From Candidatus Iainarchaeum sp. (GTDB lineage: Archaea; Iainarchaeota; Iainarchaeia; Iainarchaeales; JAZDFD01), in assembly GCA_043808155.1 (NCBI GenBank), contig JAZDFD010000016.1, positions 1 to 64,000 on the forward strand: a stretch of 64,000 bases of DNA. Reading direction: 5' to 3'. Below, piece by piece: positions 481 to 42,281 of the stretch. The stretch's first letter is position 1. Each line of letters starts with the position of its first letter. The notes below the pieces were generated by a model that searched no databases, was not told the origin of the DNA, and worked only from the letters and a program-made list of their open reading frames with translations. The position numbers and the translations under genes were made by a program.

Positions 481-513
481 TCTTTAATAAGTTATGAAAC
501 TAATATTTTAGTG

Positions 514-1581
514 ATGCAAATGAATATAAACGATTTTCTGAAAGAAAAAAAGCCTCTCATTGACGCGGAAATGGAAAAAGTTTTTCCAAGAAAATTAAAT
601 AACAAATGGCTTTCAGAAACTTTGGGAAAAGCAGATTATGCCTGTGATTTTAAAACCATCAATAAATCTCTTTCAGAACCAATATGGGATTTTCTTGATA
701 GGGGTGGCAAAAGATGGCGTCCTGCATTAATGCTTCTTACATGCGATGCTGTTGGCGGAAATTCAAAAAAAATTATGCCTTTTACTGCACTGCCGGAACT
801 TGTTCATACTGGAACAATCATGGTAGATGATGTCGAGGACAATTCAGATCAGAGACGTGGCAAACCCTGCACTCACAAACTTTACGGAACAGATGTTGCA
901 GTCAATGCTGCAAACGCAATGTATTTCTTGCCATTAACATTGCTTTACAACAACCCCCTGAAACTCAAGGAAAGCAAACTCGTAGAAATTTACAATCTTT
1001 ATTCTGAAGAATTAATCAAAGTTTCAGTCGGGCAGGCGATGGATATCCAATGGCACAGAAACTCAAGTTGCGATGTTTCAGAAGAGCAGTATTTGCAGAT
1101 GTGCGTTTACAAAACAGGCGTACTTGCAAGGTTTTCTGCCAAGCTTGGCGCGATTTTGGGAAATGCTGATGCAAAACAAATTAATGCACTTGGCAAGTTT
1201 GGGGAATCTTTGGGAGTAGCTTTCCAGATTCAGGATGATATTCTTAACATTGCCCCCGTATCAAAAGACTGGGGAAAAGAAATTGGTGATGACATAAATG
1301 AGGGCAAGAAAACACTTCTCGTTATTTATGCACTTAAGAAGCTAAACAAAGCTGATTCCTCAAAACTCAAAGAAATACTGAATATGCACACAAAGGATCA
1401 GAAACTAATTTCAGAAGCAATTGAACTAATCAAAAAGAGCGGCGCAGTCGAATATGCGAAGAAAAAAGCCTCTGAAATCGGTTCTAAAGGCTGGAAACAT
1501 GCAGAGTCTGTTCTGGACGACAGTCCTGCAAAAAACAGACTCCACGAATTCTCAGAATATGTAACTAAAAGAAAGTATTAA
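514..1581 (+). CDS. Polyprenyl diphosphate synthase (GGPP synthase-like, trans-IPPS family)
   Basis: GGKRWRP, first Asp-rich motif DDVED..RRG, GQAMD, KTG, and second motif FQIQDD. Confidence 0.93.
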   Translation: MQMNINDFLKEKKPLIDAEMEKVFPRKLNNKWLSETLGKADYACDFKTINKSLSEPIWDFLDRGGKRWRPALMLLTCDAVGGNSKKIMPFTALPELVHTGTIMVDDVEDNSDQRRGKPCTHKLYGTDVAVNAANAMYFLPLTLLYNNPLKLKESKLVEIYNLYSEELIKVSVGQAMDIQWHRNSSCDVSEEQYLQMCVYKTGVLARFSAKLGAILGNADAKQINALGKFGESLGVAFQIQDDILNIAPVSKDWGKEIGDDINEGKKTLLVIYALKKLNKADSSKLKEILNMHTKDQKLISEAIELIKKSGAVEYAKKKASEIGSKGWKHAESVLDDSPAKNRLHEFSEYVTKRKY

Positions 1582-5263: not shown

Positions 5264-6997
5264 CTATTTACTGATTACATCCTTCTTCAATGCTTTTCTT
5301 CCGCATGATTTATTTTCCGGGCAGTATCCTAGCGAATCGCATTTCGGACCAATGTGATTGAAAAGAGAGGGGGCAACTTTTTTCACTTCTTTCAGCATTT
5401 CATTTGCCATTGCTCGGATTTCCCATTGCGCACGCGTGCATAATCTATGTTCAAAGAAATTGTAAAGTGAACGTGTGTTCATTGTAATTATAATTCTTGT
5501 TTCTGCTGCATTTGGAAGAACAAATCTTGCATCTTCCTTTGGAACTTTTTCTGAAAATTCTTCATATAGTTCACGTGCGTTTTCCATGAAGTTCTCAAAC
5601 TTTTTATTCATTTCAGAATCTGCTTTTATTTTTGGAGGAATTATATATGCAAATTCCTTTTCATTAACGTAACGCTGTGATTGCTGTGAATTATGAACCA
5701 CAAAACCATTTGCTACAAAATTATGGTGCGGATCCTCCATCGTTACATCATATGTGTCTGCAATTCCACAAGGCTCAATACTTTTTATTTCAGCCCATTT
5801 TATAGTGCGGTAGCAACCGCTAGACTTTGAATGATAGGGAATTGTTTTTGTTCCAAATATATTGCTGTATTCGTGCTCATAGCCGTTGATTTTTCGATGG
5901 CATGATTCGCATAGTGTCACTAAATTTTCTGAATCTGTGATTTTTGTTTTATCGACATATATAGGTATTTTATGGTGCAAAGTTAATTTTCCCCCAATTT
6001 TATTACAAAACTGGCATTTATAGCCATCGCGTGCATAAACACTTTTTCTTAATTCTGAGGAAATTTGTTTCCTAAGCAAAACTGCTTCAGGAGTTATTCC
6101 ACCGCGCCACATTGGGTTGTTTGATCCTTTCATTCTTTCCGAAACTTTTTGTTTTTCTTCTTCTGTTCGTTCGCGACCTAGCTTCCAGTAATAGCCCTTA
6201 TGGGGCGTATGTCCATGAAGACCGCCGATTTCTTTCTGAAGGCAATGTTTTCTTACCCAAGCTCGGACAGTGTGTTTGGAACAGCCTATTTTTTTGGCAA
6301 TATCTTCTTGGGTATAATTTAAATTGTTGTAAAATTTATTTAGCCAATCTTTATCTCTTAGCAAAGCTAATTTCGGAGATTGACAGCTTATTCCGTTAAC
6401 CGCCAATTCTGGCTTGTTTTGAATAATTTCTTTAAGACGGGACCAGCCATTTTTAGTAAGAAAGCGATGATTGAGAGTAGCTTTTATGCTTTGGCCGTTT
6501 TCAAGCTCTAATTTCCAAACTTCATGTTTGCCTGTATAAATAATATTTTTAATTTTGCCAGCGCCGAATTGTTTTTTTTCTTCATCATAGTTATTTAACT
6601 TTATCAATTTTAAGCGCGATCTGCTATGTGGAGTTAGGGTTCTTTCATATAATGATTTTAATGAAAATTTTTTGTAGTTTCTTGATTTTTGACGCGCCCC
6701 CTTTATTATAGTATCGCCTGTCAAGCAATAGCTTGCAATACGGTGTCTTACAAGTTGGTGTGTCAAAGCGCGTGATACTCCTTCAACACCAAAAGTAAAA
6801 GATGCATGTTCCAGAACAGAATGATGTCCAGATTCAATCAGATTCTTAATTAGTTTCTCTGCATAAGCAGAATCCATTTTTTTCTGCAGTTCATCAATGT
6901 CTGAATTAGCATAGCATAAATGTGCTGCAGTTGCCACTGTAAGTTCAGGATTTTCAGTATATTCCAGAAGTTTGACATTTAGCTTTGTTTCAGGCAT
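5264..6997 (-). CDS. thyX: FAD-dependent thymidylate synthase ThyX precursor containing an intein
   Basis: GHHSVLEHASFTF; the ThyX motif RHRIASY/SQQSQRY is split by an insert; DARFVLPNA and RLCTRAQWEIR follow. Confidence 0.95.
   Translation of the reverse strand: MPETKLNVKLLEYTENPELTVATAAHLCYANSDIDELQKKMDSAYAEKLIKNLIESGHHSVLEHASFTFGVEGVSRALTHQLVRHRIASYCLTGDTIIKGARQKSRNYKKFSLKSLYERTLTPHSRSRLKLIKLNNYDEEKKQFGAGKIKNIIYTGKHEVWKLELENGQSIKATLNHRFLTKNGWSRLKEIIQNKPELAVNGISCQSPKLALLRDKDWLNKFYNNLNYTQEDIAKKIGCSKHTVRAWVRKHCLQKEIGGLHGHTPHKGYYWKLGRERTEEEKQKVSERMKGSNNPMWRGGITPEAVLLRKQISSELRKSVYARDGYKCQFCNKIGGKLTLHHKIPIYVDKTKITDSENLVTLCESCHRKINGYEHEYSNIFGTKTIPYHSKSSGCYRTIKWAEIKSIEPCGIADTYDVTMEDPHHNFVANGFVVHNSQQSQRYVNEKEFAYIIPPKIKADSEMNKKFENFMENARELYEEFSEKVPKEDARFVLPNAAETRIIITMNTRSLYNFFEHRLCTRAQWEIRAMANEMLKEVKKVAPSLFNHIGPKCDSLGYCPENKSCGRKALKKDVISK
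5690..6727 (-). mobile_element. Intein (346 aa) with an HNH homing endonuclease, in thyX
   Basis: Starts CLTGDT (block A), has ATLNHRF (block B) and TYDVTM...HNFVANGFVVHN followed by Ser (blocks F/G). The internal CQFC...HHKIP...NLVTLCESCH is an HNH motif. Confidence 0.95.
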
Positions 6998-7054: not shown

Positions 7055-7990
7055 ATGATGAATAAAACTGTTGCAATCGTGGGTTCAGGTCCTTCTGGGC
7101 TGCAGGCTGCAAAAGTCCTAGTGGATGCAGGTCTAAAAGTGACTATTTTTGAGAAAGAAGAACTGCTCGGTGGTGTTCTCAGATATGGTATTCCTGCATT
7201 CAGGATGAAAAGAGACCCCACAGACCAGAAGATTGAGAAATTAAGAAACGCGGGAGTTGAGCTGAAAAATAATACTGAAGTAGGAAAAGATATTTTTCTT
7301 AAGGAACTGGTTGAACAATTTGATTTTGTTGTTTTAGCAATTGGTGCCTGTGAGCACAGAACTCTGCAAGTAGAGGGCATTGAAAAAAAAGGAGTTTATT
7401 ATGCTCTTGATTTTTTAAGAAAATATAATACTGGGCAAGAAATTGACATGGGACAAAAAGCAGTTGTTATTGGTGGAGGCTATGTTGCAATTGATGCTGT
7501 TCTTGTTTTGAGAAAGTTAGCTGTTGATGCAACACTTGTTTACAGACGAAGATGTGAGGACTGCGGAATTTCAGAAGATGATATCAAAAATGCAAAAGAC
7601 CAAGGAGTTAAATTTGAATTTTGTTTAAGCCCAGTTGCAATTATGGGTGATAAAAAAGTTGAAAAAGTAAAATTCCAAAAAAATAAAGTTTGTGAAGTTC
7701 CTGGTTTGTCAAAACCTGAAATTAAACCAATTGATGAGTTTGTTGAATTTGGGGCAGATTCAGTTATAATTGCAGTTGGGGAAAAACCCAGTATGACCTG
7801 CTGGCAGGATGTGATGTTAAAATTCAGTGAAAAAGGACTGCTTATTGTAAATAGTGAAATGCAAACCAATGTAAGGACTGTTTATGCCTGCGGAGATTTA
7901 GTCACAGGACCTATAAACATTGGGTCTGCAGTTAAAACTGGGATGCAGGCAGCGCAAAGTATAATCAAAAAAGCCTCAGAATCTAATTAA
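7055..7990 (+). CDS. FAD/NAD(P)-dependent oxidoreductase, GltD/SudA/NfnB-like, lacking the N-terminal Fe-S domain
   Basis: GSGPSG, GGVLRYGIPAFR, VVIGGG..AID, YRR, and VYACGD motifs. Confidence 0.85.
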   Translation: MMNKTVAIVGSGPSGLQAAKVLVDAGLKVTIFEKEELLGGVLRYGIPAFRMKRDPTDQKIEKLRNAGVELKNNTEVGKDIFLKELVEQFDFVVLAIGACEHRTLQVEGIEKKGVYYALDFLRKYNTGQEIDMGQKAVVIGGGYVAIDAVLVLRKLAVDATLVYRRRCEDCGISEDDIKNAKDQGVKFEFCLSPVAIMGDKKVEKVKFQKNKVCEVPGLSKPEIKPIDEFVEFGADSVIIAVGEKPSMTCWQDVMLKFSEKGLLIVNSEMQTNVRTVYACGDLVTGPINIGSAVKTGMQAAQSIIKKASESN

Positions 7991-8088: not shown

Positions 8089-9375
8089 ATGCAAAGTGAA
8101 AAAACCTCAGAATTGGAAAAATTTTATTCTAAAAGTCTAGATGAAAGAATGAAAACTGTTTCCGAATTTGCAGAATTAAGTGAAAATGAAATTGCAGAAT
8201 TGAAAACCTGCATTCAAAACACTGAAAAAGCAGATAAAATGTCTGAAAATGTTATTTCATCAACTTTTTTTCCTTTGTCAGTTGCAACTAATTTCAAAAT
8301 CAATGGAAATGATTATCTCGTTCCAATGGCAATCGAGGAAGCCTCAGTTGTTGCTGCAGCGTCAAATGCTGCAAAACTTTGCAGAACATCTGGGGGATTT
8401 GAAGCAAAAGCATCTGAACAAATAATGATCGGACAGGTTCAGATTGTGAATGTTAAAAACACTGCACAGGCAAAAACCAAAATTATGACAAACCAAAAAG
8501 AAATTCTGAAACTTGCAAATGCACAGGATAAAACATTAGTGAGTTTTGGCGGCGGTGCTAAAAAAATCGACGTGAAAGTTTTCAGAAAGCACAAAATGAT
8601 TGTGGTTTATTTGTATGTTGACGCTAAGGATGCAATGGGTGCAAACGCAGTAAATACAATGGCAGAAGCAGTTGCACCAAAACTTGAAGAATTAAGTAAA
8701 GGAGAAGCGAGATTAAGAATCCTGAGTAATTTAGCGACTGAAAGAATTGTAAAAGCAAAAGCAGTTTGGACAAAAGAAATTCTTGAAAAGAATTCAAAAA
8801 ATGAGCTAAGCGGACCTGAGATTATTGAAAGAATTTTAGACGCGCATAAATTTGCAGAATTAGATGTTTATAGAGCATGCACTCACAATAAGGGAATTAT
8901 GAATGGAATTGATGCAGTTGCAATTGCAACTGGGAATGATTTCCGAGCGCTTGAGGCAGGTGCGCATTGTTATGCTTCATTGGAAGGAAATTATAAACCA
9001 CTAACTAAATTCCATAAAAATAAAACTGGTGATTTAGTTGGTGAAATTGAAATTCCATTAGCAGTTGGAATTGTTGGTGGTGCAACCAAAACACACCCAA
9101 TTGCGAAAATTGCAATGAAAATTTTAGGAATTCAAAGTGCAAAAGAACTTGGATGTGTTATGGCGTGTGTTGGTTTAGCACAAAATTTTTCTGCATTGCG
9201 TGCATTAGCAAATGACGGAATCCAAAAAGGACATATGAGTTTGCATGCGAGGAATATTGCGATAATGGCAGGTGCAACTGAACAGGAAGCAGATAGTGTT
9301 GCAGAAAGAATGATTAATGAGAATAACGTTAAAGTTGACTCTGCAAAAGAAATATTAATGGAAATTAGAAGGTGA
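8089..9375 (+). CDS. mvaA: HMG-CoA reductase, class II (bacterial/degradative type)
   Basis: [52 protein letters not shown] and GIQKGHM.LH are class II signatures. Confidence 0.93.
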
Positions 9376-9379
9376 AAAT

Positions 9380-10423
9380 ATGGCTGGTATTGTTGGTTAT
9401 GGTGCGTATATTCCGATTTTGAGAATTAAAGTTGAAGATATTGCAAACGTCTGGGGCAAAGACGGAAAGAAAATTGCTGAAGGCCTCGGAGTTAAGGAAA
9501 AAGCAGTTGCTTCAATGGATGAAGATGCCTGTACAATTTCAGTTGAAGCTGCGAGAAAGGCACTGGAAGTTTCAGGAATTGATGCACAGAGTATAGGTGC
9601 AATTTACGTTGGTTCAGAATCACACCCCTATGCAGTAAAACCTACTGCTTCAATAGTTGCAGATTCAATTAATGCAGGTCCGGATTTAACTGCTGCAGAT
9701 TTGGAATTTGCATGCAAAGCAGGAACTGCAGGAATTCAAATGTGCATGGGTCTTGTTGATTCAGGAATGATTGATTATGGTTTGGCAATTGGTTCAGACA
9801 CTGCTCAGGGAAGACCAGGTGATGCATTAGAATACACTGCAGGTTCTGGCGGAGCTGCTTTCATCATCGGAAATAAAAAAGAAGAAGTAATTGCAGAAAT
9901 TGATTTAACTTACTCATTTACAACTGACACTCCTGATTTTTGGAGAAGACAACATGCGGAATTTCCAAGACATGCCGGAAGATTCACTGGAAAACCTGCT
10001 TACTTCAAACATGTTTCAAGTGCTGCAAAAAAGTTAATGGAAAAAGCAGGAACAACACCTGATGATTACAAATATGCGGTTTTCCATCAGCCAAATGCAA
10101 AGTTCCCGCAGACAGTTGCGAAAATGCTTGGTTTTAAAGAAGAAAAAATCAAACAGGGTTTATTAGTGCCCTTTATTGGAAACACATATTCAGGTGCTGC
10201 AATGATTGGTTTAGCATCAGTTCTTGATGTTGCAAAACCAAATGATAAAATCTTAGTTGTGAGTTATGGCAGCGGTGCAGGAAGTGACGCATTCAGTTTA
10301 ACAGTAACTAAAAATATTGAAAATAAACGAGCAGAAGTTCCTTTGTTTGAAATGATTAAAGAAAAGAAATATCTGGATTATGCAAACTATGCAAAACATA
10401 GGGGAAAATTAAAATCTTTGTAG
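9380..10423 (+). CDS. Hydroxymethylglutaryl-CoA synthase (archaeal type)
   Basis: [21 protein letters not shown], catalytic [28 protein letters not shown]. Confidence 0.96.
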
Positions 10424-10431
10424 GTGTTGTG

Positions 10432-11517
10432 ATGAGAAGTGTATCGATAATTGGTGTTGGATTCGATAATTGTTTCACACCAAAAAGTTCATCGGAAATT
10501 AGGTCACCAACTCATTTATATGCTGAAAATTATTCAAATTATAATATGCAAATTTCTAAATTTCGTTTGATTAGAGCTACGCAGAAATTGCCAAACGATG
10601 CATCTTCTAGAGAAATTGCAACAGCAGCAGGATATAAATCACACAAAATAATTAATATTTATTTTGAATCTTTAGAGCAACTCAAGACACAAGCTGGAAC
10701 TCTGGAATCAAATAAAGATGAAGTTAATCAAGTTTTTCCACAAATTGAATTTAGTTTGCAGGACATTTCGAGAGGAATTCAAATTCCTCTTGATATAACA
10801 CCACTTTTAGCAGAGGAAATTGGATGGCATATAGGTGATGGTTGTATTCCAAATAACAAAAATGGGAATGCAATATACCAACTTGGTGGAGATCCAAATG
10901 AAGAAAGAGAATTCTACGAAAATTATATCAAAAAGACTTTCAAAGCATTATACAACTATAATGCGAAACCTAACTTTTTGGCAAAGGGTAATCTATTTGG
11001 GATAACTTTTGCATCAAAAGCAATTTTTGATTTCAAAACAAAAATTTTAGGATTCCCAATCGGTAAAAAATCTCATATTATAAGGATTCCTGACGCAATA
11101 ATGTTTGGTGATGATGAAAACAAAAAAGCAGTTATTCGCGGAATTGCAGACACTGACTTTTCAGTCACATTTCAAAAAAAACATAAAAATTTCCATTATT
11201 ATCCTGCAATTATAGGCAGCACCGTCTCTAAGACATTAGCCACTCAATTAAAGTCACTTTTAATTCAATTAGGTTTTAAACCAAAAGTACAAGTCTATTT
11301 TAGAAAAAGAACACAACATAACGAATATTTGATTAGACTAATGGGTAAAAATCAATTAGAAAAATGGTTTGATATTATTGGTAGTAATAATCCAAAACAC
11401 ATAACAAAATACAATGTATGGGCAAAAGTCGGATTTTGTCCTCCTTATACGAAAATTGTTCAAAGACAGAAGATTATAGAAGGGCATCTAAATCCGAAAA
11501 AATTTTATGGTGGTTAA
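10432..11517 (+). mobile_element. Free-standing LAGLIDADG (DOD-type) homing endonuclease whose first 10 residues mimic the thiolase N-terminus
   Basis: Two LAGLIDADG-like helices, LLAEEIGWHIGDG and AVIRGIADTDFS. No intein splicing blocks are present. N-terminus MRSVSIIGVG matches thiolase MRSVSVIGAA. Confidence 0.85.
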
Positions 11518-11518
11518 T

Positions 11519-12679
11519 ATGCGTAGTGTATCTGTAATAGGGGCAGCTGTAACAAAATTTGGCGAACACTGGGACAAAAGTTTCCGTGAGTTAATTGCAG
11601 AAGCAGGAATTAAAGCAGTTGCAGATTCCGGTGTTGAAGGAAATAAAATTGAAGCAATTTATGGCGGGTGTATGGCATCTGGAAGATTCATTGGTCAGGA
11701 ACACATAGGTGCACTAATTGCAGACCAGCTTGGTTTGAATCCAATCCCCTCTACAAGATTAGAAGCGGCATGTGCGTCTGGTGGTGTAGCACTAAGAACT
11801 GCATATCTGTCAATTGCAGCTGGCGTTTATGATATTGTTGCAGTTGGCGGAATTGAAAAAATGACTGAAGTAAGTACGGAAGAAGCAAGTTTTGCATTAG
11901 GCGGTGCAGGTGATGAAGAAACAGAATTGTTTCATGGTGCAACATTTCCTTCGTTGTATGCACTTCTTGCACGTTCACACATGAAAAAATTCGGAACAAC
12001 TGAAGAACAAATGGCAATGTGTGCAGTTAAGAATCATAAAAATGCAACAAAGAATCCTTATGCACAATTTCAAAGAGAAATTACTGTTGATGATGTAATG
12101 AATTCAGGTTATGTTTCCACACCACTTAAACTTCTGGACTGCTCACCAATAACTGATGGTGCTGCTGCATTAATTTTGTGTGAAACAGAAAAAGCAAAAC
12201 AGATTACTCATAAAGCAGTTGAACTTGTTGGTTCAGGACAAGCGTCGGATTCACTTGCACTTGCCGGCAGAAAAAGTTTGACAGAATTAAGCGCAACAAA
12301 AATTGCTGCTGAGCAGGCATATAAACAATCTGGTTTGAATGTAAAAGATATTGATTTTGCAGAAGTACATGATTGTTTTACAATTGCAGAAATTCTTGCA
12401 ATTGAAGATCTTGGATTTTTCAAAAAAGGAGAAGGCGGAAAAGCAACTGAAAAAGGTAAAACTCAGCTGGATGGTGAAATACCAATCAACACTTCTGGTG
12501 GATTGAAAGGTAAAGGCCACCCTGTTGGTGCAACTGGTGTTGCACAGGCAGTTGAGGTTTTTTGGCAATTAAATAATGAAGCGAATCAAAGACAAATTAA
12601 AGATGCAAAAGTTGGTTTAACACACAATGTTGGTGGTTCAGGAGCAACAGCTGTTGTTCATATATTTAAAAAAGCATAA
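11519..12679 (+). CDS. Acetoacetyl-CoA thiolase (archaeal acetyl-CoA acetyltransferase)
   Basis: TKFGE, catalytic EAACASGG, DCSPITDG, EVHDCF, KGHPVGATG, HNVGGSG. GGTGG RBS precedes the ATG at 11519. Confidence 0.96.
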   Translation: MRSVSVIGAAVTKFGEHWDKSFRELIAEAGIKAVADSGVEGNKIEAIYGGCMASGRFIGQEHIGALIADQLGLNPIPSTRLEAACASGGVALRTAYLSIAAGVYDIVAVGGIEKMTEVSTEEASFALGGAGDEETELFHGATFPSLYALLARSHMKKFGTTEEQMAMCAVKNHKNATKNPYAQFQREITVDDVMNSGYVSTPLKLLDCSPITDGAAALILCETEKAKQITHKAVELVGSGQASDSLALAGRKSLTELSATKIAAEQAYKQSGLNVKDIDFAEVHDCFTIAEILAIEDLGFFKKGEGGKATEKGKTQLDGEIPINTSGGLKGKGHPVGATGVAQAVEVFWQLNNEANQRQIKDAKVGLTHNVGGSGATAVVHIFKKA

Positions 12680-12687
12680 GTGATTTT

Positions 12688-13866
12688 ATGAACTACGAAG
12701 AAGAATCTCTGAAGATTCATGAACAAGATAAAGGAAAAATGGAATTAGTTCCCAAAAGAAGAATTACAAATATTGATGAACTTTCAGTTTTGTACACTCC
12801 GGGAGTTGCAGAACCTTCACGTAAAATTGCAGAAAACAAAGAAGATGTTTACAAATATACAATGAAAGGAAATGCAATTGCAATAGTAACAGATGGTTCA
12901 GCTGTTTTGGGTTTGGGAAACATAGGTCCTGAAGCAGCGCTTCCTGTAATGGAAGGGAAATCATTACTGTTCAAACAGTTTGCAAATATAGATGCATTTC
13001 CAATTTGTGTAAAAACACAGGATGCAGATGAGATTGCAATGATTGTGAGAAATATTTCACCTGCATTTGGTGCAATCAATCTGGAAGACATTTCTGCACC
13101 GCGTTGTTTTGAAGTAGAAGAAAAACTTGCAGATTTGGGAATACCTGTTTTTCATGATGATCAACATGGAACTGCAATCATAACACTTGCAGCACTTATC
13201 AATGCTGCAAAACTTTCAGACAGAAAGTTAGGTGAATTAGAAATTGCAATTAATGGTGCAGGTGCTGCCGGGACTGCAATTACAAAACTTCTGAAGAATG
13301 AAAAACTGCGTGAATTTGGTCTGGAACCGGTAAAAGAAATCATACTTTGTGATTCAAAAGGAATTATCTATTCAGGGAGAGAGGGGCTGAATAAGTACAA
13401 ACAGGAAATTGCGGAATTCACAAACACAAAAAATTTACAGAGCACGTTAGCAGATGCAATGCTGAACAAAGATGTTTTTATTGGGGTTTCAAAAGCAAAT
13501 CTTGTGGATGAAGAAATGATTAAATCAATGAATGAAAATCCCATTGTTTTTGCAATGGCAAATCCAATACCTGAAATCATGCCTGAAAAAGCAAGACATG
13601 CAGGTGCGAAAATAATTGCAACAGGGCGAAGTGATTATGCAAATCAGGCAAATAATGTTCTTGCTTTCCCTGGTGTGTTAAGAGGTGCATTAGATGCGCG
13701 TGCTACTAAAATTACTGAGGAAATGAAAATCGCTGCTGCAATCGCATTAGCAGATTACGTAGAAAATCCGAGTGTTGAAATGTTTATTCCAAATCCATTG
13801 GATGAGAAAGTTGCTTACTTAGTTGCTGAACGCGTAGCAGAAACCTGGAGGAGATTCAATGAGTGA
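12688..13866 (+). CDS. NAD(P)-dependent malic enzyme (small prokaryotic type)
   Basis: YTPGVA, TDGSAVLGLGNIG, PVMEGK, INLEDI, FHDDQHGTA, GAGAAG, AMANP, NNVLAFPG. Confidence 0.95.
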   Translation: MNYEEESLKIHEQDKGKMELVPKRRITNIDELSVLYTPGVAEPSRKIAENKEDVYKYTMKGNAIAIVTDGSAVLGLGNIGPEAALPVMEGKSLLFKQFANIDAFPICVKTQDADEIAMIVRNISPAFGAINLEDISAPRCFEVEEKLADLGIPVFHDDQHGTAIITLAALINAAKLSDRKLGELEIAINGAGAAGTAITKLLKNEKLREFGLEPVKEIILCDSKGIIYSGREGLNKYKQEIAEFTNTKNLQSTLADAMLNKDVFIGVSKANLVDEEMIKSMNENPIVFAMANPIPEIMPEKARHAGAKIIATGRSDYANQANNVLAFPGVLRGALDARATKITEEMKIAAAIALADYVENPSVEMFIPNPLDEKVAYLVAERVAETWRRFNE

Positions 13867-14260
13867 TAATTTACCCCTGCATTGGAGACGATATCCTGAA
13901 AGATATTATCTGAAAGGAACATTGTGTGAAATATGTAATACTGCATATTTTCCGCCAAGACAAGTGTGTCCAAAATGCAGACGAAAAGGAAAAATAAGAG
14001 ATGAAATAATGCCAAAAACTGGAAAAATAATTACTTATACTGAGTTAAGCGTAGGGCCAATGGGATTTGAGCATGAAACACCTTACTTCTTGGCATTGAT
14101 TGAACTGGATAATGGTGCAAAACTTCTAAGTCAGGTTGTAGATTCAAAAAAAGAAAAAATAAAAGAAGATGCAAGAGTAAAAAAAGTCTTCAGAAAAATC
14201 GCAGACAACGATGCAGAAGGTGCAATCTCATATGGTTTTAAGTTTAAAGTTGTTGAATAA
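13859..14260 (+). CDS. DUF35 Zn-ribbon/OB-fold protein (thiolase/HMG-CoA synthase scaffold)
   Basis: WRR..ERY.L.G, CEIC...FPPR..CPKC and YGFKF motifs; located in the thiolase operon. Confidence 0.93.
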   Translation: MSDNLPLHWRRYPERYYLKGTLCEICNTAYFPPRQVCPKCRRKGKIRDEIMPKTGKIITYTELSVGPMGFEHETPYFLALIELDNGAKLLSQVVDSKKEKIKEDARVKKVFRKIADNDAEGAISYGFKFKVVE

Positions 14261-14275
14261 TAACTAGGTGATAAA

Positions 14276-15211
14276 GTGGGTTCTGGAAAAGGATATGGCA
14301 AATCAATTTTGTTCGGGGAACACTTTGTTGTTTATGGTTTGCCTGCGATTGCAAGTGCACTTGGAGATTATACTGAAGCAAAAGTTGAATTAACTGAAGG
14401 CACTGGCTGGGAATTACAAGATGAACGTCTAGCAACCCCTGGCTATAAAAAAGAAAAATATGATGAACAGGTAGATTCAATCAACCGCGTTATTGACGCT
14501 GCGGGAATTGATTTGAGTGATAAGAAACTCAAAATTTGGTTTGGCGGAAATTTAAAAGCTGCTTCTGGCGTTGGTGCAAGTGCTGCAAGCTGTGCTGCAT
14601 TAGCACGTGCATTAAATGAAGAATTTTGTCTAGGATTTGATGATGATAAAATAAATGAATTAGCTTATGAAGGTGAAAAAGGTTATCACGGAACCCCTTC
14701 AGGAATTGATAATACTGCCGCAGTATTTGGCGGGCTGATTTGGTTCAAAAAAAATCTAGAAGGCGGAGCAAACACAATGGATAAAATGAAATCAAATGCT
14801 TTCAAAATTGTAATTGGAAACACGGGTAAAACGTCATCAACAATTAAAGTTGTCGGGGATGTTAAAAAACTCAAAGAAACTGATGAAGAAAAATTCGCGC
14901 GTATTCTTGGACAGTATGACGAAGTTGCAAATCGTGCAAAGAAAGCTCTTCTTGCAAATGATTTGGAAAAAGTCGGAGTACTGATGAATAAAAACCATGA
15001 ACTGCTTCAAAAAATTAATGTGTCTTGTGATGAGTTAGATTTAATGGTTAAAACTGCAAGAACTGCAGGTGCATTGGGTGCAAAACTGACTGGCACTGGC
15101 AGAGGCGGATTAATGATTGCACTTGTTACAGATTCAAAAACTCAGACTAAAGTTGCAGAAGCAATTGAAGCTTTGGGTTTTGACACAATGAAAATGGATG
15201 TAGGTATCTGA
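14276..15211 (+). CDS. mvk: Mevalonate kinase
   Basis: GKSILFGEHFVVYG, GHMP loop GVGASAA, HGTPSGID, KLTGTGRGG. Confidence 0.95.
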   Translation: MGSGKGYGKSILFGEHFVVYGLPAIASALGDYTEAKVELTEGTGWELQDERLATPGYKKEKYDEQVDSINRVIDAAGIDLSDKKLKIWFGGNLKAASGVGASAASCAALARALNEEFCLGFDDDKINELAYEGEKGYHGTPSGIDNTAAVFGGLIWFKKNLEGGANTMDKMKSNAFKIVIGNTGKTSSTIKVVGDVKKLKETDEEKFARILGQYDEVANRAKKALLANDLEKVGVLMNKNHELLQKINVSCDELDLMVKTARTAGALGAKLTGTGRGGLMIALVTDSKTQTKVAEAIEALGFDTMKMDVGI

Positions 15212-15762
15212 TGAAATTAATTATTGGAATTTCAGGAGCTAGCGGAGCTCATTATGGTGTTGAATTACTTAAAGCACTTAAGGAAAAGAAAATTGAAACA
15301 CATTTAATTCTTAGTGAATGGGCTGAGAAAATTCTTGAAATTGAAACTGATTATAAAATTGAAGATGTGAAAAAACTGGCAACTAAAGTTTATGACAACA
15401 AAGATATGAGTGCAAGAATTTCAAGTTCTTCATTTTTAGTTGACGGGATGATTGTAATGCCATGCTCAATAAAAACAGTTTCAGAAATTGCTAACGGAAG
15501 CTGTTCAACTTTAATCACCAGATCGGCAGATAATGTAATGAAAATGAAAAAAACACTTCTTGTTGGTGTAAGAGAAACGCCTTTGAGCACTGCTGTGCTT
15601 GAGAATCTGAAGAATATTTCTCTCTATGGGGGTATTGTGATGCCTTTAAGCCCTGGATTTTATCATAAGCCGAAGGAAATAAAAGACTTAAATTCCTTTA
15701 TTGTAGGGAAAGCATTAGATGTTTTTGGAATTGAAAACAACAACTTCAAAAGGTGGGATTAA
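15211..15762 (+). CDS. ubiX: Flavin prenyltransferase UbiX (prFMN synthase)
   Basis: IGISGASG, PCS.KT, RSAD, RETP and PGFYH.P motifs. Confidence 0.93.
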   Translation: MKLIIGISGASGAHYGVELLKALKEKKIETHLILSEWAEKILEIETDYKIEDVKKLATKVYDNKDMSARISSSSFLVDGMIVMPCSIKTVSEIANGSCSTLITRSADNVMKMKKTLLVGVRETPLSTAVLENLKNISLYGGIVMPLSPGFYHKPKEIKDLNSFIVGKALDVFGIENNNFKRWD

Positions 15763-17063
15763 TGGGCTTGCAGGAATTTATTCAGAAATTAAAAGATGAA
15801 AATAAAATCACAGAAATTAATACGTCTGTTTCTAAAAATCTTGAAATAGCCGGAGTTCTGAAAGAACTTGAACCAATGCCGGTTTTATTTAATTCTGTAA
15901 AAGAATCTGATTTCAAAGTTGTCGGAAATTTATTTTCTTCAAAACAGCTTATTGCAGATTATCTCGGTGTCGAAGTAAAAAATATAACACAAAAAGTTCT
16001 AAACGCAATTGAAAATCCATCAAAACCTGCTGAAGTTAAACACGGAAGCTGTCAGGATGTTGTAATTGATGATGTTAATTTGGATAAACTTCCAATACTG
16101 AAGCACTGTGCAAAAGACGGTGGAAATTACATCAGTTCAGGAGTTTTTTTTGCAAGAGATTCTGAATTAGGTGAAAATTTATCATTTCATAGGTGTATGC
16201 AGATTTCAAAAAATGAATTTACAGTAAGAATTTTGCAGAGGCATCTGGATCATTTCATTACTAAAAATAGCGGAAATTTGGATGTTGCAATTGCGGTTGG
16301 ACTAACCCCAAATTTACTTTTAGCGGGTGCAACTTCGATTGGGTTAGGCTGTGATGAATCCGAAGTTGCAAACACTCTTGAAAAAGTTAAGCTTGTGAAA
16401 GCAAAAACTTGTGATGTGATGGTTCCTGCAGATGCGGAATTTATTTTGGAAGGAACACTAACAAGTGAAATGAAAGATGAAGGTAAATTTGTTGATTTAA
16501 CTGCGACTTATGATTTTGTAAGAAAACAAAGAGTTTTCAAAATTAAGAAAATAACACATAGAAAAAATGCACTATGGCATGCACTGCTCCCAGGGGGAAT
16601 GGAACACAGAGTTTTAATGGGTATGCCCAAAGAACCAACAATTTTCAGAGAAGTAAATAAAGTCTGCAAATGTGTTGATGTTAATGTCAATCCCGGCGGA
16701 TGCAGCTGGCTTCATGCAATTGTAAAAATTAAAAAAGAAAAAGAAGATGACGGAAGAAAAGCAATTGAAGCTGCGTTTGCAGGCCATAATTCTTTGAAGC
16801 ACGCATTTGTTGTTGATGATGATATTGACATTAACGACCCTTATGATGTTGAATGGGCAATGTCCACGAGATTTCAAGCTGGAAAAGATTTCATTGACAT
16901 GGGTCGAAAAAAAGGATCAAGTCTGGATCCGAGTTCAGATGAGAAAACAAGAGAAACAGACAAGCGCGGTTTTGATTTAACAAAACCTGTGAATGCAGAT
17001 CCTGATAAATTTGACAAAGTTGAATTCCCGAAAATCAATCTGAAGAAGATAATGGGTGATTAA
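15762..17063 (+). CDS. UbiD-family prFMN decarboxylase, likely trans-anhydromevalonate 5-phosphate decarboxylase
   Basis: DLxKLPI...DGG.YI, EFILEG, EGKFVD, VVDDDI, WAMSTRFQ, SSLDPS. Overlaps the ubiX stop (TAATG) and lies within the MVA operon. Confidence 0.9.
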   Translation: MGLQEFIQKLKDENKITEINTSVSKNLEIAGVLKELEPMPVLFNSVKESDFKVVGNLFSSKQLIADYLGVEVKNITQKVLNAIENPSKPAEVKHGSCQDVVIDDVNLDKLPILKHCAKDGGNYISSGVFFARDSELGENLSFHRCMQISKNEFTVRILQRHLDHFITKNSGNLDVAIAVGLTPNLLLAGATSIGLGCDESEVANTLEKVKLVKAKTCDVMVPADAEFILEGTLTSEMKDEGKFVDLTATYDFVRKQRVFKIKKITHRKNALWHALLPGGMEHRVLMGMPKEPTIFREVNKVCKCVDVNVNPGGCSWLHAIVKIKKEKEDDGRKAIEAAFAGHNSLKHAFVVDDDIDINDPYDVEWAMSTRFQAGKDFIDMGRKKGSSLDPSSDEKTRETDKRGFDLTKPVNADPDKFDKVEFPKINLKKIMGD

Positions 17064-17066
17064 AAA

Positions 17067-18251
17067 ATGAAATTGACTTCTGAAGAAAAAGAAATGCTTG
17101 AAGGACAACACGGGAATGCAGTAAAAAAGAGCATGGAAATTATAGTTGCACTTGGTGAAATCTTCGGTGCAGAAAAATTAATTCCCGTAACATCAGTTCA
17201 GATTGCAGGAGTTTCCTACAGCAATTTAGGTGAAGCTGGTTTAGAGTTTTTAGATGAAATGGCAAAAGATGGGAAAGTAAAAGTTTTCACAACATTAAAT
17301 CCTGCCGGCATGGACATGGAAAACTGGGAAGCTCTTGGAATTTCACCAGAGTTTGCGAAAAATCAGAAAAGAGTTATTGATGTTTTTGCAAAAATGGGTG
17401 TTGTTACAACCTGCACTTGTACACCTTATTTGATTGGAAATTTGCCGCATTTTGGCCAGCATATTTCATGGAGTGAAAGTTCAGCAGTGGCTTTTTCAAA
17501 TTCGGTTTTGGGAGCACGTACAAACCGAGAAGGGGGACCAAGTGCATTGGCAGCTGCAATAACTGGCAGAACAGCAGAATTTGGCTATCATCTGGATGAG
17601 AACAGAAAACCAGTGATTACAGTTGATGTTAATGCCGAAATGAAAGAAATTACTGATTTTGGTGCACTGGGTTTAGTAATTGGAAAAAAGATTGGAAACA
17701 AAGTTGCATACATCAGAGGAATTAAAGAAGTGTCAATTGAACAGCTTAAAAGTTTCTCTGCGTCAATTGCAACTTATGGCGGAACTGCTTTATATCATAT
17801 TGAAGGAATTACTCCTGAAAAATATAAAGCTCCGAGCAAAAAAATTGAAGTAACTAAAAATGATATTGATGACGCAAAAAAATCAATGACTGATAAAGGC
17901 GAAGAAGTTGATTTAATTTCAATTGGTTGTCCGCACTGTACGCTTTCAGAAATTCAGAAAGTTGCAGAACTTTTAAACGGTAAAAAAGTTAAGAAAGAAC
18001 TTTGGATTTGCGTTGCACGCCCAATTAAAAAAATGGCAGACCAGATGGGATACTCAAAAATTATTGAAGATTCGGGTGCGAAGTTTGCGTGTGATACCTG
18101 TATGGTAGTTGCACCGTTGAAAAGCAGATTTAAAACACTCGCAACTGATTCTGCAAAAGGTTGCTATTATGGCAGGGGAAAAAATAATTTCAAAACAAGA
18201 TTTGCAAAAATTGAAGATTTAGTTAAAATTGCAACGGGTGAACTTAGATGA
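17067..18251 (+). CDS. Aconitase X large subunit (DUF521), likely phosphomevalonate dehydratase large subunit
   Basis: TTLNP, TCTCTPY, WSESSA, GARTNREGG, IGCPH, DTCMVVAP. Confidence 0.92.
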   Translation: MKLTSEEKEMLEGQHGNAVKKSMEIIVALGEIFGAEKLIPVTSVQIAGVSYSNLGEAGLEFLDEMAKDGKVKVFTTLNPAGMDMENWEALGISPEFAKNQKRVIDVFAKMGVVTTCTCTPYLIGNLPHFGQHISWSESSAVAFSNSVLGARTNREGGPSALAAAITGRTAEFGYHLDENRKPVITVDVNAEMKEITDFGALGLVIGKKIGNKVAYIRGIKEVSIEQLKSFSASIATYGGTALYHIEGITPEKYKAPSKKIEVTKNDIDDAKKSMTDKGEEVDLISIGCPHCTLSEIQKVAELLNGKKVKKELWICVARPIKKMADQMGYSKIIEDSGAKFACDTCMVVAPLKSRFKTLATDSAKGCYYGRGKNNFKTRFAKIEDLVKIATGELR

Positions 18252-18640
18252 AACTCAAAGGAAGAAAAATCTCCGCAGGCAGTGCAGAAGGAATTGCATT
18301 AGTTTCCGTAAAACCAATCTCATTTTACGGCGGAGTTGATCCTGATACGGGAAAAGTTACTGAAAAAGATCATGATTTGGAAGGCAAAAGCATCACGGGA
18401 AAGATTTTAATATTTCCGCGAGGTGCTGGTTCAACTGTTGGTTCTTATACAATGTACAGATTAAAAAAACAGGGTACTGCGCCTTTGGCAATTATTCTTG
18501 GCGAATGCGAGCCAATAGTTGCAGTTGGTGCAATAATTTCTGAAATTCCGTGTGTCGATAAAATTGATATTTCAAAAATAAAAAACGGAATGAAATTAAA
18601 AGTTGATGCAACAAACGGAATTGTTGAAGTTTTAGAATAA
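18248..18640 (+). CDS. Aconitase X swivel subunit (DUF126), likely phosphomevalonate dehydratase small subunit
   Basis: ISFYGGVDP.TG, GSTVGSY and VAVGAII..IP motifs; overlaps the large-subunit stop. Confidence 0.92.
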   Translation: MKLKGRKISAGSAEGIALVSVKPISFYGGVDPDTGKVTEKDHDLEGKSITGKILIFPRGAGSTVGSYTMYRLKKQGTAPLAIILGECEPIVAVGAIISEIPCVDKIDISKIKNGMKLKVDATNGIVEVLE

Positions 18641-18658
18641 TTTCACACTTTTAAAAAG

Positions 18659-19309
18659 GTGTTTTTTTTGGAAAATGTAAAAGCAATTATTTTTGATTGG
18701 GATGGCACTATTGTTGACAGCATGCCCACACATATCGAAGCATATCTGAAAGCTTTGGCAAAGTTTGGAATTAAAGCTAACGCACAGGATATTTTGGATT
18801 TGGTCGGGACACCTACTGAACTGCTTGCAGAAGAAGTTGCAAATAAATATGGTGTTAAAACTAAAGGCAAAGAAATTGCAAAAGAGAAAATTAAAAATTA
18901 TATTGAGTTTTCTAAAAGTAAAAATTTGATTTTTGATGGGGCACTGGAAATATTGCTTGCATTAAAACCACACTATAAACTTGCCTTGCTAAGTGGTTCC
19001 ACGAGAAAACAACTTGATAATTATAAAGAAATTCTTGAACTTTTTGAAATTACAGTCGCAGGAAAGGAAGCATCAAAACCAAAGCCAAATCCTGATGCTT
19101 TGTGGGATATTGCAGATAAGCTTGATTTGGTGCCTAGTGAATGTGCATATATTGGTGATTTTTGGCAGGATATGATGGCTGCAGAGAAGGCTGGCATGTG
19201 GGCAATCGGTATCCGAAACAGATATGTTTCAGATAAAGAGCTAACTGATGCAGGGGCAGATATAATTATTAATAACCTAAATGAACTTCTTACTACAGGG
19301 CTTTTATGA
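18659..19309 (+). CDS. HAD-superfamily hydrolase (beta-PGM/phosphoglycolate phosphatase-like)
   Basis: Motif I FDWDGT, motif III KPNP, motif IV YIGD...D. Confidence 0.88.
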   Translation: MFFLENVKAIIFDWDGTIVDSMPTHIEAYLKALAKFGIKANAQDILDLVGTPTELLAEEVANKYGVKTKGKEIAKEKIKNYIEFSKSKNLIFDGALEILLALKPHYKLALLSGSTRKQLDNYKEILELFEITVAGKEASKPKPNPDALWDIADKLDLVPSECAYIGDFWQDMMAAEKAGMWAIGIRNRYVSDKELTDAGADIIINNLNELLTTGLL

Positions 19310-20112
19310 AACTAATTATTTTGAAATCGGGTGGCAGTGTCTGCACTGAAAAGGACAGAAATAAAGTAAAAGCAAAAATTCCAGTAATAAAACGAGTTGC
19401 GAGTGAAATTAAAGCTGCTCAAAGAAAACAAAAATTCAAACTTGTTTTAGTGCATGGTGCAGGACCTTTTGGACATCAATTTGTTCATAATTATGGAGTG
19501 AAAAACGGGGTAAAAAAAACAAACAAAAAACAAATTGAAGGTTTTGTCAGAACTCACAATTCAATGGAAGATTTGAATAAGATTTTTATGGATGTTTTTC
19601 GAAAAGAGGGTTTGCTTGGTTTCCCAATACAAACTAGTGCATGTGTTGTTCAAAAAAATAAAACAATTTCCAAATTTGACACAGCAATAATAAAAGAACT
19701 TCTGAAATTTGAAAATGTGATTCCCATCATGTACGGCGACATGGTAATCGATACTGCCAAAGGTGCGACAGTTGTTAGCGGAGATGCTTTAATTTCATTT
19801 CTTGCAAAAAAACTCAATGCAGATTTAGTTTTGCTTGGTGCTGATTTGGATGGCATATTCACTGCAGACCCCAAGAAAAACAAAAAAGCAAAGCTTATTG
19901 AAAAAATCAATTCAAAAAACTTTAAGGAAGTGCTGAGTTATGTGAAAGAAGCATCAACTATTGATGTAACCCGCGGTATGAAAGGAAAACTTCTTGAAAT
20001 TAAAAAAATTGCAAATAAAAGAAAAGTAATTGTTTTCAATCTGAACAAAAAGAATTATTTGTATAATTTGCTCATTGGAAAAAAAGTCATTTCAACTGAA
20101 ATAAAATTGTAG
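19306..20112 (+). CDS. ipk: Isopentenyl phosphate kinase
   Basis: Amino-acid-kinase fold: KSGGS..T.K, VHGAGPFGH, YGD, SGD, DVTRGMKGK. Confidence 0.92.
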   Translation: MKLIILKSGGSVCTEKDRNKVKAKIPVIKRVASEIKAAQRKQKFKLVLVHGAGPFGHQFVHNYGVKNGVKKTNKKQIEGFVRTHNSMEDLNKIFMDVFRKEGLLGFPIQTSACVVQKNKTISKFDTAIIKELLKFENVIPIMYGDMVIDTAKGATVVSGDALISFLAKKLNADLVLLGADLDGIFTADPKKNKKAKLIEKINSKNFKEVLSYVKEASTIDVTRGMKGKLLEIKKIANKRKVIVFNLNKKNYLYNLLIGKKVISTEIKL

Positions 20113-20119
20113 TGATATT

Positions 20120-21163
20120 ATGAGAAAAACAAAAAGTGTGAAAAAAACAAAAAGCAGGAAATTGGAACATATTAAAATTTGCTTAAATCAGAATGTTCAG
20201 TTCAGAGAAAAAACAACTGGTTTCGAAAGAATGGATTTTGCAGCAGTTGATTTGACATACAAAGCACTCCCTGAAATTAACAAAAAAGAAATTAATACTG
20301 AAACTAAATTTTTGGGAAAAAAGTTTTCTGCTCCTTTAATGGTTACTGCAATAACTGGCGGAGTACCAGAAGCAAAAACAATTAATCTCGACATTGCAAA
20401 AGCATGTCAGGCACTTGGTTTGGGCATGGGTCTCGGAAGTCAGAGAGCAATGCTTGAGGATAAAAAAGTTTCAAATACTTACAAAGTCAGAGATATTGCA
20501 CCTGATATTTTTATTGCAGGAAATATTGGTGTTTTGCAAATTCAGGAATATTCTGTTTCAGATATTAAATGGATGTTGGATGAGGTTGAGGCTGATGCTT
20601 TAGCAATTCACATTAATGCAGCCCAAGAAGCTCTTCAGAAAGATGGCGCAACAACCTTTAAAGGGGGGTTACGCGGAATTAAAAAACTTGCAAAAAATCT
20701 GAAAAAACCAGTTTATGTTAAGGAAGTAGGTCATGGAATTTCAGCAGATGTTGCTAAGCTCCTCTCAGACACTGGAATTAAAGCAATTGATGTTGCAGGT
20801 GCAGGCGGAACTTCATGGATTGGAGTCGATTCTTTACGTGGAAATAAGGAAAGCGGAGAAGTATTTTGGGATTTCGGAATCCCTACCCTGGAGAGTCTGA
20901 TTCAGGTTAAAGAGAGTTTCAAAGGCCAGATAGTCGCATCTGGGGGCATAAGAAATGGCTTGGAAATGGCAAAAGCATTGGTTTTAGGTGCGGATATGTG
21001 CGGAATTGCATTGCCTGTTTTGAAGGCTCAGAACGCAGGTGGTAGTGCAGGTGTTGAGAAATATTTGAGAATGCGGATTGAAGAATTGAAAACAGCAATG
21101 TTTCTCACTGGTGCTAAAAATATCAAAGAATTAAAGCAACAGAAAGTTGTATCTTATACATAA
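20120..21163 (+). CDS. fni: Type 2 isopentenyl-diphosphate delta-isomerase
   Basis: RKLEH, TGG, GSQRA, HINAAQE, KEVGHG, DVAGAGGTSW, ASGGIR. Confidence 0.96.
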   Translation: MRKTKSVKKTKSRKLEHIKICLNQNVQFREKTTGFERMDFAAVDLTYKALPEINKKEINTETKFLGKKFSAPLMVTAITGGVPEAKTINLDIAKACQALGLGMGLGSQRAMLEDKKVSNTYKVRDIAPDIFIAGNIGVLQIQEYSVSDIKWMLDEVEADALAIHINAAQEALQKDGATTFKGGLRGIKKLAKNLKKPVYVKEVGHGISADVAKLLSDTGIKAIDVAGAGGTSWIGVDSLRGNKESGEVFWDFGIPTLESLIQVKESFKGQIVASGGIRNGLEMAKALVLGADMCGIALPVLKAQNAGGSAGVEKYLRMRIEELKTAMFLTGAKNIKELKQQKVVSYT

Positions 21164-24256: not shown

Positions 24257-24265
24257 AAAAATAAT

Positions 24266-24724
24266 TTATTTTTTTGAGAGTGCGTCTCTCTTGCCTATGA
24301 CTTTTGCAGGATTTCCGGCAACAACTGAATTTGCAGGGACATCTTTCGTAACAACTGCACCTGCACCAATAAGTGAATTTTTTCCAATTTTTACCGGGAG
24401 TAAAGTTACGTTAGAGCCTATTGAAACATTTTCTTCTATAAGTGTTTCTTTCCAGTCTCCTCCGGAAGGTGGATTTAAATCATTGATAAACATTACACCA
24501 TGGCCGATGAAGACATTGTCTTTAATTTTAACTTTACTGCAAATGAAAGTATGTGACTGAATTCTGCAGTTGTCACCAATTTCAACATCTGACTGAATCT
24601 CAACAAAAGAACCAATCATGCAGTTCTTTCCTATTTTGCAGCCGTAAATATTTACGCAGTGCCATATTTTTGTGTTTTCCCCAATTTCTGCATCTTTTAT
24701 AATCTGGTACTGACCGCTAGCCAT
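24266..24724 (-). CDS. Hexapeptide-repeat sugar N-acetyltransferase (WbpD/WlbB-like)
   Basis: Left-handed beta-helix repeats, KIWH, FIND and GAGAVVTKDVP..VVAGNPA. Confidence 0.88.
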   Translation of the reverse strand: MASGQYQIIKDAEIGENTKIWHCVNIYGCKIGKNCMIGSFVEIQSDVEIGDNCRIQSHTFICSKVKIKDNVFIGHGVMFINDLNPPSGGDWKETLIEENVSIGSNVTLLPVKIGKNSLIGAGAVVTKDVPANSVVAGNPAKVIGKRDALSKK

Positions 24725-24728
24725 TCAA

Positions 24729-26872: not shown

Positions 26873-26914
26873 GCTAACAACTCAAATGTGCTATAAACCT
26901 CTTTTAAATGTTTT

Positions 26915-28141: not shown

Positions 28142-28252
28142 ACAAGCAATTTATTTGCCACTTAATATATATTATATATTCGGATTATTAAAAGAAGTTT
28201 GGTACAATTCTCAAAATTGCTGCATTCTCTATAAGTGGTGCAAATCTCAAAA

Positions 28253-42036: not shown

Positions 42037-42089
42037 TCCAATTAATAAGAGCGTTGAAATTAATAAATAATGACTCACAATACTGCTTT

Positions 42090-42281
42090 TCAATATCTCT
42101 TTTTTCTAACTTCGTCACTTGCAAGTTTAGGGAGTATGAAGAATGAAAAAACACCAGTGACACCCATTATCACTGCAAAAGAAAGCCAGTCAATCCACAT
42201 AAATAGAAATAGTATGAATGAAATAACAAGCACAATAACAAGAAGAGTAGCTATTGCTTTCAAAATAGTAAAATAATCCAT
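42090..42281 (-). CDS. Small membrane protein
   Basis: Two hydrophobic helices and a basic C-terminus. Confidence 0.55.
   Translation of the reverse strand: MDYFTILKAIATLLVIVLVISFILFLFMWIDWLSFAVIMGVTGVFSFFILPKLASDEVRKKRY

Follow-up and report, generated by a model that had tools for sequence, protein, structure and literature searches.

The locus considered here raises the question of whether a complete mevalonate (MVA) pathway, encoded by a single row of genes in a DPANN archaeon, is a mobile acquisition or a resident part of the chromosome. The row occupies positions 8089-21163 of the window, a 64,000-nucleotide stretch of Candidatus Iainarchaeum sp. (contig JAZDFD010000016.1, here contig C16 of genome G000, which is 1.08 Mb in size and 88% complete), and consists of 14 consecutive open reading frames (ORFs) on the + strand, separated by -10 to +18 nt, confirming the tight, co-oriented arrangement described in the original prediction. 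That prediction saw in the row a rare, self-contained and possibly transferable isoprenoid cassette conferring lipid autonomy. The analyses below indicate instead that it is very probably a resident, lineage-standard MVA operon of Iainarchaeota in the archaeal (anhydromevalonate) form; for Iainarchaeota, a DPANN genome with a complete archaeal route is nothing unusual, and what is new is an endonuclease gene at the start of the thiolase gene, together with a phosphatase, possibly the pathway's missing helper.

Profile searches with Pfam and NCBIfam assigned 11 of the 14 ORFs to MVA pathway families. The row opens with a class II HMG-CoA reductase (HMGR; 8089..9375; TIGR00532, 429 bits against a cut-off of 260), the best solved relatives of which are class II enzymes (E 4e-127), and continues with an archaeal HMG-CoA synthase (HMGS; 9380..10423; TIGR00748, 572 against 353), an acetoacetyl-CoA thiolase (11519..12679; NF004720 above cut-off; best PDB match 6esq_A, E 3e-123) and a ChsH2-like DUF35 protein (13859..14260; PF01796 and PF12172), which we take to be the scaffold of a thiolase/HMGS complex. 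These are followed by mevalonate kinase (MVK; 14276..15211; TIGR00549, 226 against 163), the flavin prenyltransferase UbiX, which is the synthase of prenylated FMN (prFMN; 15211..15762; TIGR00421), a UbiD-family decarboxylase (15753..17063; TIGR00148, 352 against 245), the large (17067..18251; PF04412) and small, or swivel (18248..18640; NF003046), subunits of a type II AcnX, isopentenyl phosphate kinase (IPK; 19306..20112; NF040647, 221 against 120, with PDB IPKs matched) and type 2 isopentenyl diphosphate isomerase (IDI-2; 20120..21163; TIGR02151, 387 against 281). The original coverage of the pathway stands for these 11 ORFs; it had overlooked that the other three, encoding a LAGLIDADG_3 protein (10432-11517), a malic enzyme (12688-13866) and a HAD phosphatase (18659-19309), are not pathway enzymes. 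The spacing of the ORFs suggests that the row is co-transcribed; a scan for sigma-70 style promoters and terminators, a type unsuited to archaea, found sites no more often than in shuffled sequence.

AcnX proved closer to TkAcnX than to hydroxyproline dehydratase: the large subunit matches 7cnr_A at E 6.5e-114 and the hydroxyproline enzyme at E 2.7e-64, and the small subunit matches 7cnr_B at E 4.9e-49. Site residues were scored against the list in the available text of PMC8184944. In TkAcnX numbering, the large subunit keeps the equivalents of A47, G48, V49, S50, N53, N79, C110, E129, S130, S131, C283, C342, K361 and Y365, that is, A47 in addition to all 13 listed large-subunit residues, and in the small subunit S62, T63 and V64 are retained, such that 16/17 published residues of the mevalonate 5-phosphate (MVA-5P) site, three Cys included, are conserved. 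The heterodimeric form, the three Cys ligands C110, C283 and C342 and the lack of the type I residue C510 place the enzyme in type II. In UbiD, R147, E243 and D248 are invariant in 64/64 AcnX-adjacent homologues from several phyla, as is an EGxFxDLT motif; because of these residues and the operon context, we infer that UbiD acts as anhydromevalonate phosphate decarboxylase (AMPD). Matches to UbiD and to the HAD phosphatase in the ESM Atlas carry generic names only. No match to PF18376 or to a GHMP decarboxylase query was found in G000, at its 88% completeness, and AcnX/UbiD is thus the only visible route to isopentenyl phosphate (IP). MVK, two-subunit AcnX, UbiD, UbiX and IPK, the set by which the archaeal modified MVA pathway is recognized, are all encoded, and the claim of a complete pathway in one row is upheld by the named families and the AcnX site residues.

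Judged from characterized homologues, the row would therefore encode the complete anhydromevalonate route. Thiolase, DUF35 and HMGS would generate HMG-CoA, from which class II HMGR would form mevalonate and MVK, in turn, MVA-5P. The [4Fe-4S] AcnX pair would dehydrate MVA-5P, and UbiD, using prFMN supplied by UbiX, would decarboxylate the product to IP, leaving IPK and IDI-2 to provide isopentenyl diphosphate (IPP) as well as dimethylallyl diphosphate (DMAPP) for geranylgeranyl diphosphate (GGPP) and ether-lipid side chains.

A synteny survey across 196 genomes of the order, with one locus taken per genome for 124 genomes, demonstrates that this layout is the usual one, contrary to the original view that such genes are scattered and the row a rarity. 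AcnX-large was found in 75/196 genomes, and in 47 of these 75 loci the series HMGR-HMGS-thiolase-DUF35-MVK-UbiX-UbiD-AcnL-AcnS-IPK is complete and in order; the remaining 28 reach contig or fetch ends or have a gene not in view, and no locus (0/75) violates the order. The position of IDI-2 varies among the 47: 25 have it downstream and 9 upstream, 6 carry an IDI-1-like Nudix gene in its stead, and none was observed in 7. GHMP decarboxylase was found in 53/196 genomes, and in most loci lacking AcnX it occupies the slot after MVK, usually with a kinase; the one slot decarboxylase tested scored above the DMD cut-off, and the companion kinases above the PMK cut-off (3/3 tested). AcnX and GHMP decarboxylase occur together in 4 genomes, against about 20 expected if they were independent, with the caveat that related genomes are not independent observations. 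Fusions within the operon were seen in relatives, joining UbiD to AcnL, MVK to decarboxylase and Nudix to PMK (L366:11178-13616; L430:4595-6556; L393, L394, L402), and several AcnX rows carry an HD-domain phosphohydrolase family, placed either at the UbiD-AcnL junction or so that it separates the two AcnX subunits (L128:7484-8065 and 7 similar). Genes after IPK in 17 AcnX loci (e.g., L354:2979-3524) resemble what we take, from motifs, to be subunits of pyruvate:ferredoxin oxidoreductase, and genes so labeled would place acetyl-CoA supply beside the row.

The host itself belongs, on marker-gene evidence, to Iainarchaeota (Diapherotrites) within DPANN, in agreement with the DPANN-type host originally proposed. 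Specifically, among 120 listed relatives of aCPSF1, 16 carry a taxon below domain, namely 13 Diapherotrites, 2 Iainarchaeum and 1 Micrarchaeota. The nearest named relatives of the endonuclease are likewise Diapherotrites, and in the AcnX/UbiD tree the window groups, though weakly (support 87), with three rows from Iainarchaeota. The surroundings of the row are also shared within the order: of the 124 loci, 34 have a GltD/SudA-like FAD-NAD(P) oxidoreductase gene, identified by profile matches and present upstream in the window (7055..7990, +), and 57 have Dtd or the gene that partners it. In most relatives IDI-2 and Dtd are adjacent, while in the window a block of about 8 kb separates them; sugar-modification and glycosyltransferase-like genes lie at 22510-28993 (-) in this block.

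Several observations weigh against reading the row as a resident operon of this pathway. Among solved structures, UbiD comes closest to one from outside the MVA pathway (6h6v, a furandicarboxylate decarboxylase entry, E 7e-71); the small AcnX subunit has Tyr in place of TkAcnX Leu27, where the hydroxyproline enzyme has Trp; G000 is incomplete to the extent given above; among strong splits of the lower-module trees (44 genomes), 11/28 conflict with the tree of the upper enzymes and 13 are identical; and in a tree of named loci the phyla are intermixed. The enzymatic points, to which may be added that the sole NCBIfam match of AcnX-large is the hydroxyproline dehydratase model at a score far under its cut-off (291 against 700), would suit AcnX, UbiD and UbiX serving other chemistry, on hydroxyproline or aromatic acids, in an incomplete MVA pathway. 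Yet position 27 is Tyr or Phe in 64/64 AcnX-adjacent loci, and the two-subunit form with its MVA-5P-site residues, the placement of the genes between MVK and IPK and the near mutual exclusion with a GHMP decarboxylase using the same slot make such a reading extremely unlikely. The tree conflicts and mixed phyla, together with the tight packing and the presence of a homing endonuclease gene inside the row, are instead what might be expected of the recently transferred or mobile cassette of the original prediction. Against this stand the same neighbors in many families of the order, a GC content of 0.359 against 0.350 for the genome, and a tetranucleotide distance within the genomic range (8/69 genome windows are as far or farther); moreover, no tRNA was found in the window and no clear terminal repeats at the row ends, and the flanking ORFs examined encode neither an integrase nor a transposase. 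A mobile cassette or genomic island was rejected on these grounds, and movement of the whole row as one unit is very unlikely.

The reading that remains is that of a resident row, so judged because of its conserved neighbors, genome-like composition and lack of a tRNA or clear end repeats, of which, as these comparisons indicate, the lower half alone shows movement, through exchange in situ. When the lower-module type was mapped on a tree built from the three upper enzymes, all of which are available in 71 of the 124 loci, 13-14 changes were counted, at least 9-10 of them forced by strong branches, which suggests either repeated replacement or differential loss; inheritance of the row, by the same trees, is not purely vertical. 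The trees were built with FastTree, are unrooted and carry local supports only, and we therefore name no donor and propose no sequence of events. On this reading, the operon would hold a single chromosomal position as its lower half and a PMK/DMD-type module replace one another in situ, and would gather passengers, namely the homing endonuclease at the thiolase start, the phosphatase and the malic enzyme.

The first of these passengers is a free-standing gene for a LAGLIDADG endonuclease with two motifs (10432..11517, +; PF14528). MRSVSIIGVG opens its ORF and MRSVSVIGAA the thiolase that follows; a start of MRSV or MRGV is found in 9/13 aligned members of the endonuclease family. In the family alignment both catalytic Asp are kept, D136 being invariant and D242 nearly so, and the predicted model (pLDDT 86) matches I-DmoI, I-Tsp061I and intein endonucleases by Foldseek (E 2e-9 to 5e-6), such that motifs, catalytic acidic residues and modeled fold together indicate a probable homing endonuclease. 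Relatives match at 1e-25 in 53 genomes, and a close clade lies directly before thiolase in 5 (five families; 5/196), with two further metagenome contigs carrying it. As expected of a homing endonuclease, the same site was found both with and without the element: the same-genus relatives G027 and G003 are empty, and contigs of two public runs, which at 80% likeness and low depth represent related organisms and not this strain, pass in register from 10451 to 11550 and from 10426 to 11528 and show a start with AGA. Codon usage at the start also differs with occupancy. Among the 46/96 thiolases that start M-R-[S/T/N/G]-V, codon 2 is CGN in 5/5 occupied and 3/41 empty alleles, and AGR in 38/41 empty ones, while endonuclease starts use AGA at codon 2 in 5/5 visible cases. 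The simplest reading of these sequences is that the element keeps the host's start for its own use and supplies the thiolase with a recoded one; cleavage by the endonuclease would be part of this.

The second passenger, the HAD phosphatase (18659..19309, +), appears to belong to a subfamily dedicated to the operon: of its 8 best matches within the order, 7 immediately precede IPK, and it is fused in frame to AcnX-small in two genomes of one genus (G035 and G047); a fusion of this kind is encoded at L138:4967-6022 on the minus strand. A second HAD family occurs in 17/54 complete AcnX rows and 0/36 GHMP rows, or 1/37 if an inverted GHMP locus dropped by the strand filter (G080) is counted. Phosphatases of any kind were seen in 26/54 complete AcnX rows (28 with fusions) against 11/36 GHMP rows (p 0.13 or 0.053), and the broader proposal that any phosphatase marks the AcnX module was set aside as not significant. 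M. mazei reportedly uses a Nudix hydrolase as supplier of dimethylallyl phosphate (DMAP). Nudix genes were set aside for that role here: those after IPK have IDI as best model, below cut-off, and resemble an IDI-1 substitute, and those after GHMP decarboxylase travel with the GHMP module. UbiX residue F163 aligns with AnUbiX Q203 and O157 H164 and is Phe in 65/65 homologues of the order; in the available text of PMC6541611, users of DMAPP have Gln or His at this position, and the P. aeruginosa enzyme, which is specific for DMAP, has Phe.

Neither proposed role is without competitors. A LAGLIDADG gene might equally be the cargo of an intron or intein, a domesticated regulator or an artefact of assembly, and it is to the credit of such readings that the protein is a predicted endonuclease whose cleavage is likewise presumed, that about 45 N-terminal residues present in relatives are absent from this copy, which models poorly over its first 34, and that WhiA is among the fold matches. 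A profile search, however, found no intein domain in the endonuclease, and an intron or structured RNA at its ends was set aside, given the lack of an Rfam match there and junction folds no better than those of shuffles. The downstream thiolase has a start of its own, both catalytic Asp are retained, and the patchy occurrence in five families with empty same-genus relatives, one frameshifted copy and in-register empty alleles speaks for a homing element that replaces the gene start; the competing readings are, on balance, unlikely. The phosphatase is a less secure case. That it is a dedicated helper converting DMAPP to DMAP for UbiX is suggested by its place in the row, by the AcnX-small fusion, by the Phe of UbiX and by the distribution of the second HAD family, and yet about half of the complete AcnX rows have no phosphatase while GHMP rows may have one, a close match (G107) lies in a row with IPK and without UbiX, one second-family member sits in the inverted GHMP locus, and IPK run in reverse could also give DMAP. 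The alternatives are a general enzyme of IP-pool control, repair or pyrophosphate hydrolysis, or a bystander, and we regard the helper role as possible though doubtful.

The third passenger, the malic enzyme (12688..13866, +; PF00390 and PF03949), is local: malic enzyme genes occur in 70/196 genomes, and the window is the only one of 124 loci with one inside the row. Contigs of a near relative bridge both junctions, and the insertion is therefore not a slip of assembly; a supply of pyruvate and NAD(P)H by this enzyme is our guess.

The lipid autonomy attributed to the row does not follow from the genome-wide evidence. GGGPS and CarS score above cut-off elsewhere in G000, which also encodes a DGGGPS-like protein (DGGGPS being the best model, below cut-off), two geranylgeranyl reductases and a CDP-alcohol transferase; the ether-lipid steps of GGGPS, DGGGPS, CarS and reductase are thus all represented, and the cell likely makes side chains and attaches them, to judge from its gene content. 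In a survey of 41 genomes, GGGPS was found in 36, while glycerol 1-phosphate (G1P) dehydrogenase (NF002022) exceeded the cut-off in 0/41 (best 24-48 bits against 413; 3/14 control genomes positive) and GpsA was found in 0/41; the match of G000 to the G1P dehydrogenase model is an Fe-ADH, and no FGGY (glycerol) kinase was found in G000. The source of G1P is thus missing order-wide, which speaks against taking the row as a sign of lipid independence. Loss of G1P dehydrogenase has been inferred in the ancestor of Iainarchaeota and Micrarchaeota (PMC12892359, in part), and more complete lipid pathways are reported for DPANN cluster 1 in the available text of PMC7414124. Several genomes have GGGPS and no match to either lower module or to HMGS (e.g., family f30, with AcnX 0/18 and decarboxylase 0/18), which suggests uptake of prenyl precursors. 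The DGGGPS-like gene is immediately followed by a further HAD gene (G000:C26:72043-72654, -).

Elsewhere in the window, the prenyl synthase noted about 6.5 kb upstream of the row is indeed present as a GGPP synthase-like trans-prenyl diphosphate synthase (511..1581, +; PF00348, 1.5e-69; best NCBIfam model IdsA, below cut-off), and such a gene is also close to the row in several relatives; in L385 (G047), a LAGLIDADG match lies between two prenyl synthase matches upstream of the operon. LAGLIDADG_3 is matched 14 times in G000; some of these matches lie within long frames that contain inteins, several are free-standing (C6, C1, C13, C14, C24), and of the free-standing copies shown, none repeats the start of its neighbor. 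Distant LAGLIDADG relatives recur just upstream of one gene type (L189, L193-L197, L209, L225, L227, L230), the product of which has an N-terminus resembling what is presumably histidyl-tRNA synthetase; this gene is possibly a second conserved homing site. Subunits like those of a Group 3b NiFe hydrogenase are encoded at 40180-42093 (-), and at 5264-6997 (-) lies what we take, from motifs of the translation, to be a ThyX-like gene split by an insert that resembles an intein and carries an HNH-like motif.

Taken together, these data permit a broader proposal, which we put forward tentatively and with more reserve than conviction: that the operon is a fixed scaffold whose lower half is a plug-in module switched many times between the oxygen-sensitive AcnX/UbiD and the PMK/DMD routes, that the HAD proteins perform an undescribed step of DMAP supply for making prFMN, and that the LAGLIDADG gene represents a class of archaeal homing elements which, without splicing, capture gene starts and rebuild cleavage-resistant ones. 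In-place swaps of two lower pathways would offer a natural series for asking what selects each, the phosphatase fused to AcnX-small is an assayable candidate for DMAP supply that may aid the ATP-saving route in E. coli, and the endonuclease provides an example of a selfish gene living within an essential operon without splicing. The further suggestion of an attractive engineering module adds little, as the M. mazei route already operates in E. coli (PMC12547664, in part).

Nor is the presence of the pathway new. As far as the available texts extend, MVA genes in Diapherotrites are already in print (PMC8407392; PMC6107057; PMC11052028): the pathway has been reported in 39.7% of Diapherotrites (PMC8407392), Hoshino and Gaucher described MVA enzymes in Diapherotrites and broadly distributed MVA gene clusters in 2018 (PMC6107057), the AcnX/AMPD route is held to be the commonest in archaea, most sampled DPANN included, with MVA genes usually clustered (PMC11052028), and an archaeal-type route has been noted in Chloroflexota (PMC13001223). 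A literature search, covering text and not figures or supplements, found neither the gene order nor the in-place swap stated, and either may be in print; the search likewise found no account of a start-capturing endonuclease of this kind in archaea.

Comparison with known systems places both the endonuclease and the operon. The LAGLIDADG protein has the two-domain fold in common with I-DmoI, I-Tsp061I and intein endonucleases; unlike these, it has no surrounding intron or intein and carries an extra N-terminal helical region. Duplication of the end of the host gene is a feature of the elements at Allomyces atp6 and Ophiostoma rps3. Free-standing homing endonuclease genes of phages are, in the available text, likewise patchy, decayed by frameshift and next to an essential gene (PMC10448857), and for fungal mitochondrial LAGLIDADG insertions, in-frame fusion to the host gene and partial duplication are likewise noted in the part of PMC7902536 available. 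Unlike both, the element here resides in an archaeal chromosome, has a metabolic target, and appears to keep the 5' end of that target while re-supplying a recoded copy. The operon, for its part, shares clustering near a trans-prenyl synthase with the MVA clusters of bacteria, the candidate phyla radiation (CPR) and archaea (PMC6107057, in part), a study that predates the AcnX/UbiD assignment and in which PMK and DMD were largely absent from Diapherotrites, as opposed to the GHMP decarboxylase found here, mostly in the slot after MVK. All enzyme families of the Aeropyrum/Methanosarcina-type pathway, comprising a type II AcnX phosphomevalonate dehydratase, UbiD as AMPD, prFMN synthase and IPK, are also present, and the AcnX site residues match those of TkAcnX. 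The row differs from that pathway in its class II HMGR and its three passengers and, unlike named loci of other phyla, in which mostly the lower half is clustered or, in several Micrarchaeota, two opposed arms are formed, it carries all eleven genes on one strand and in one row.

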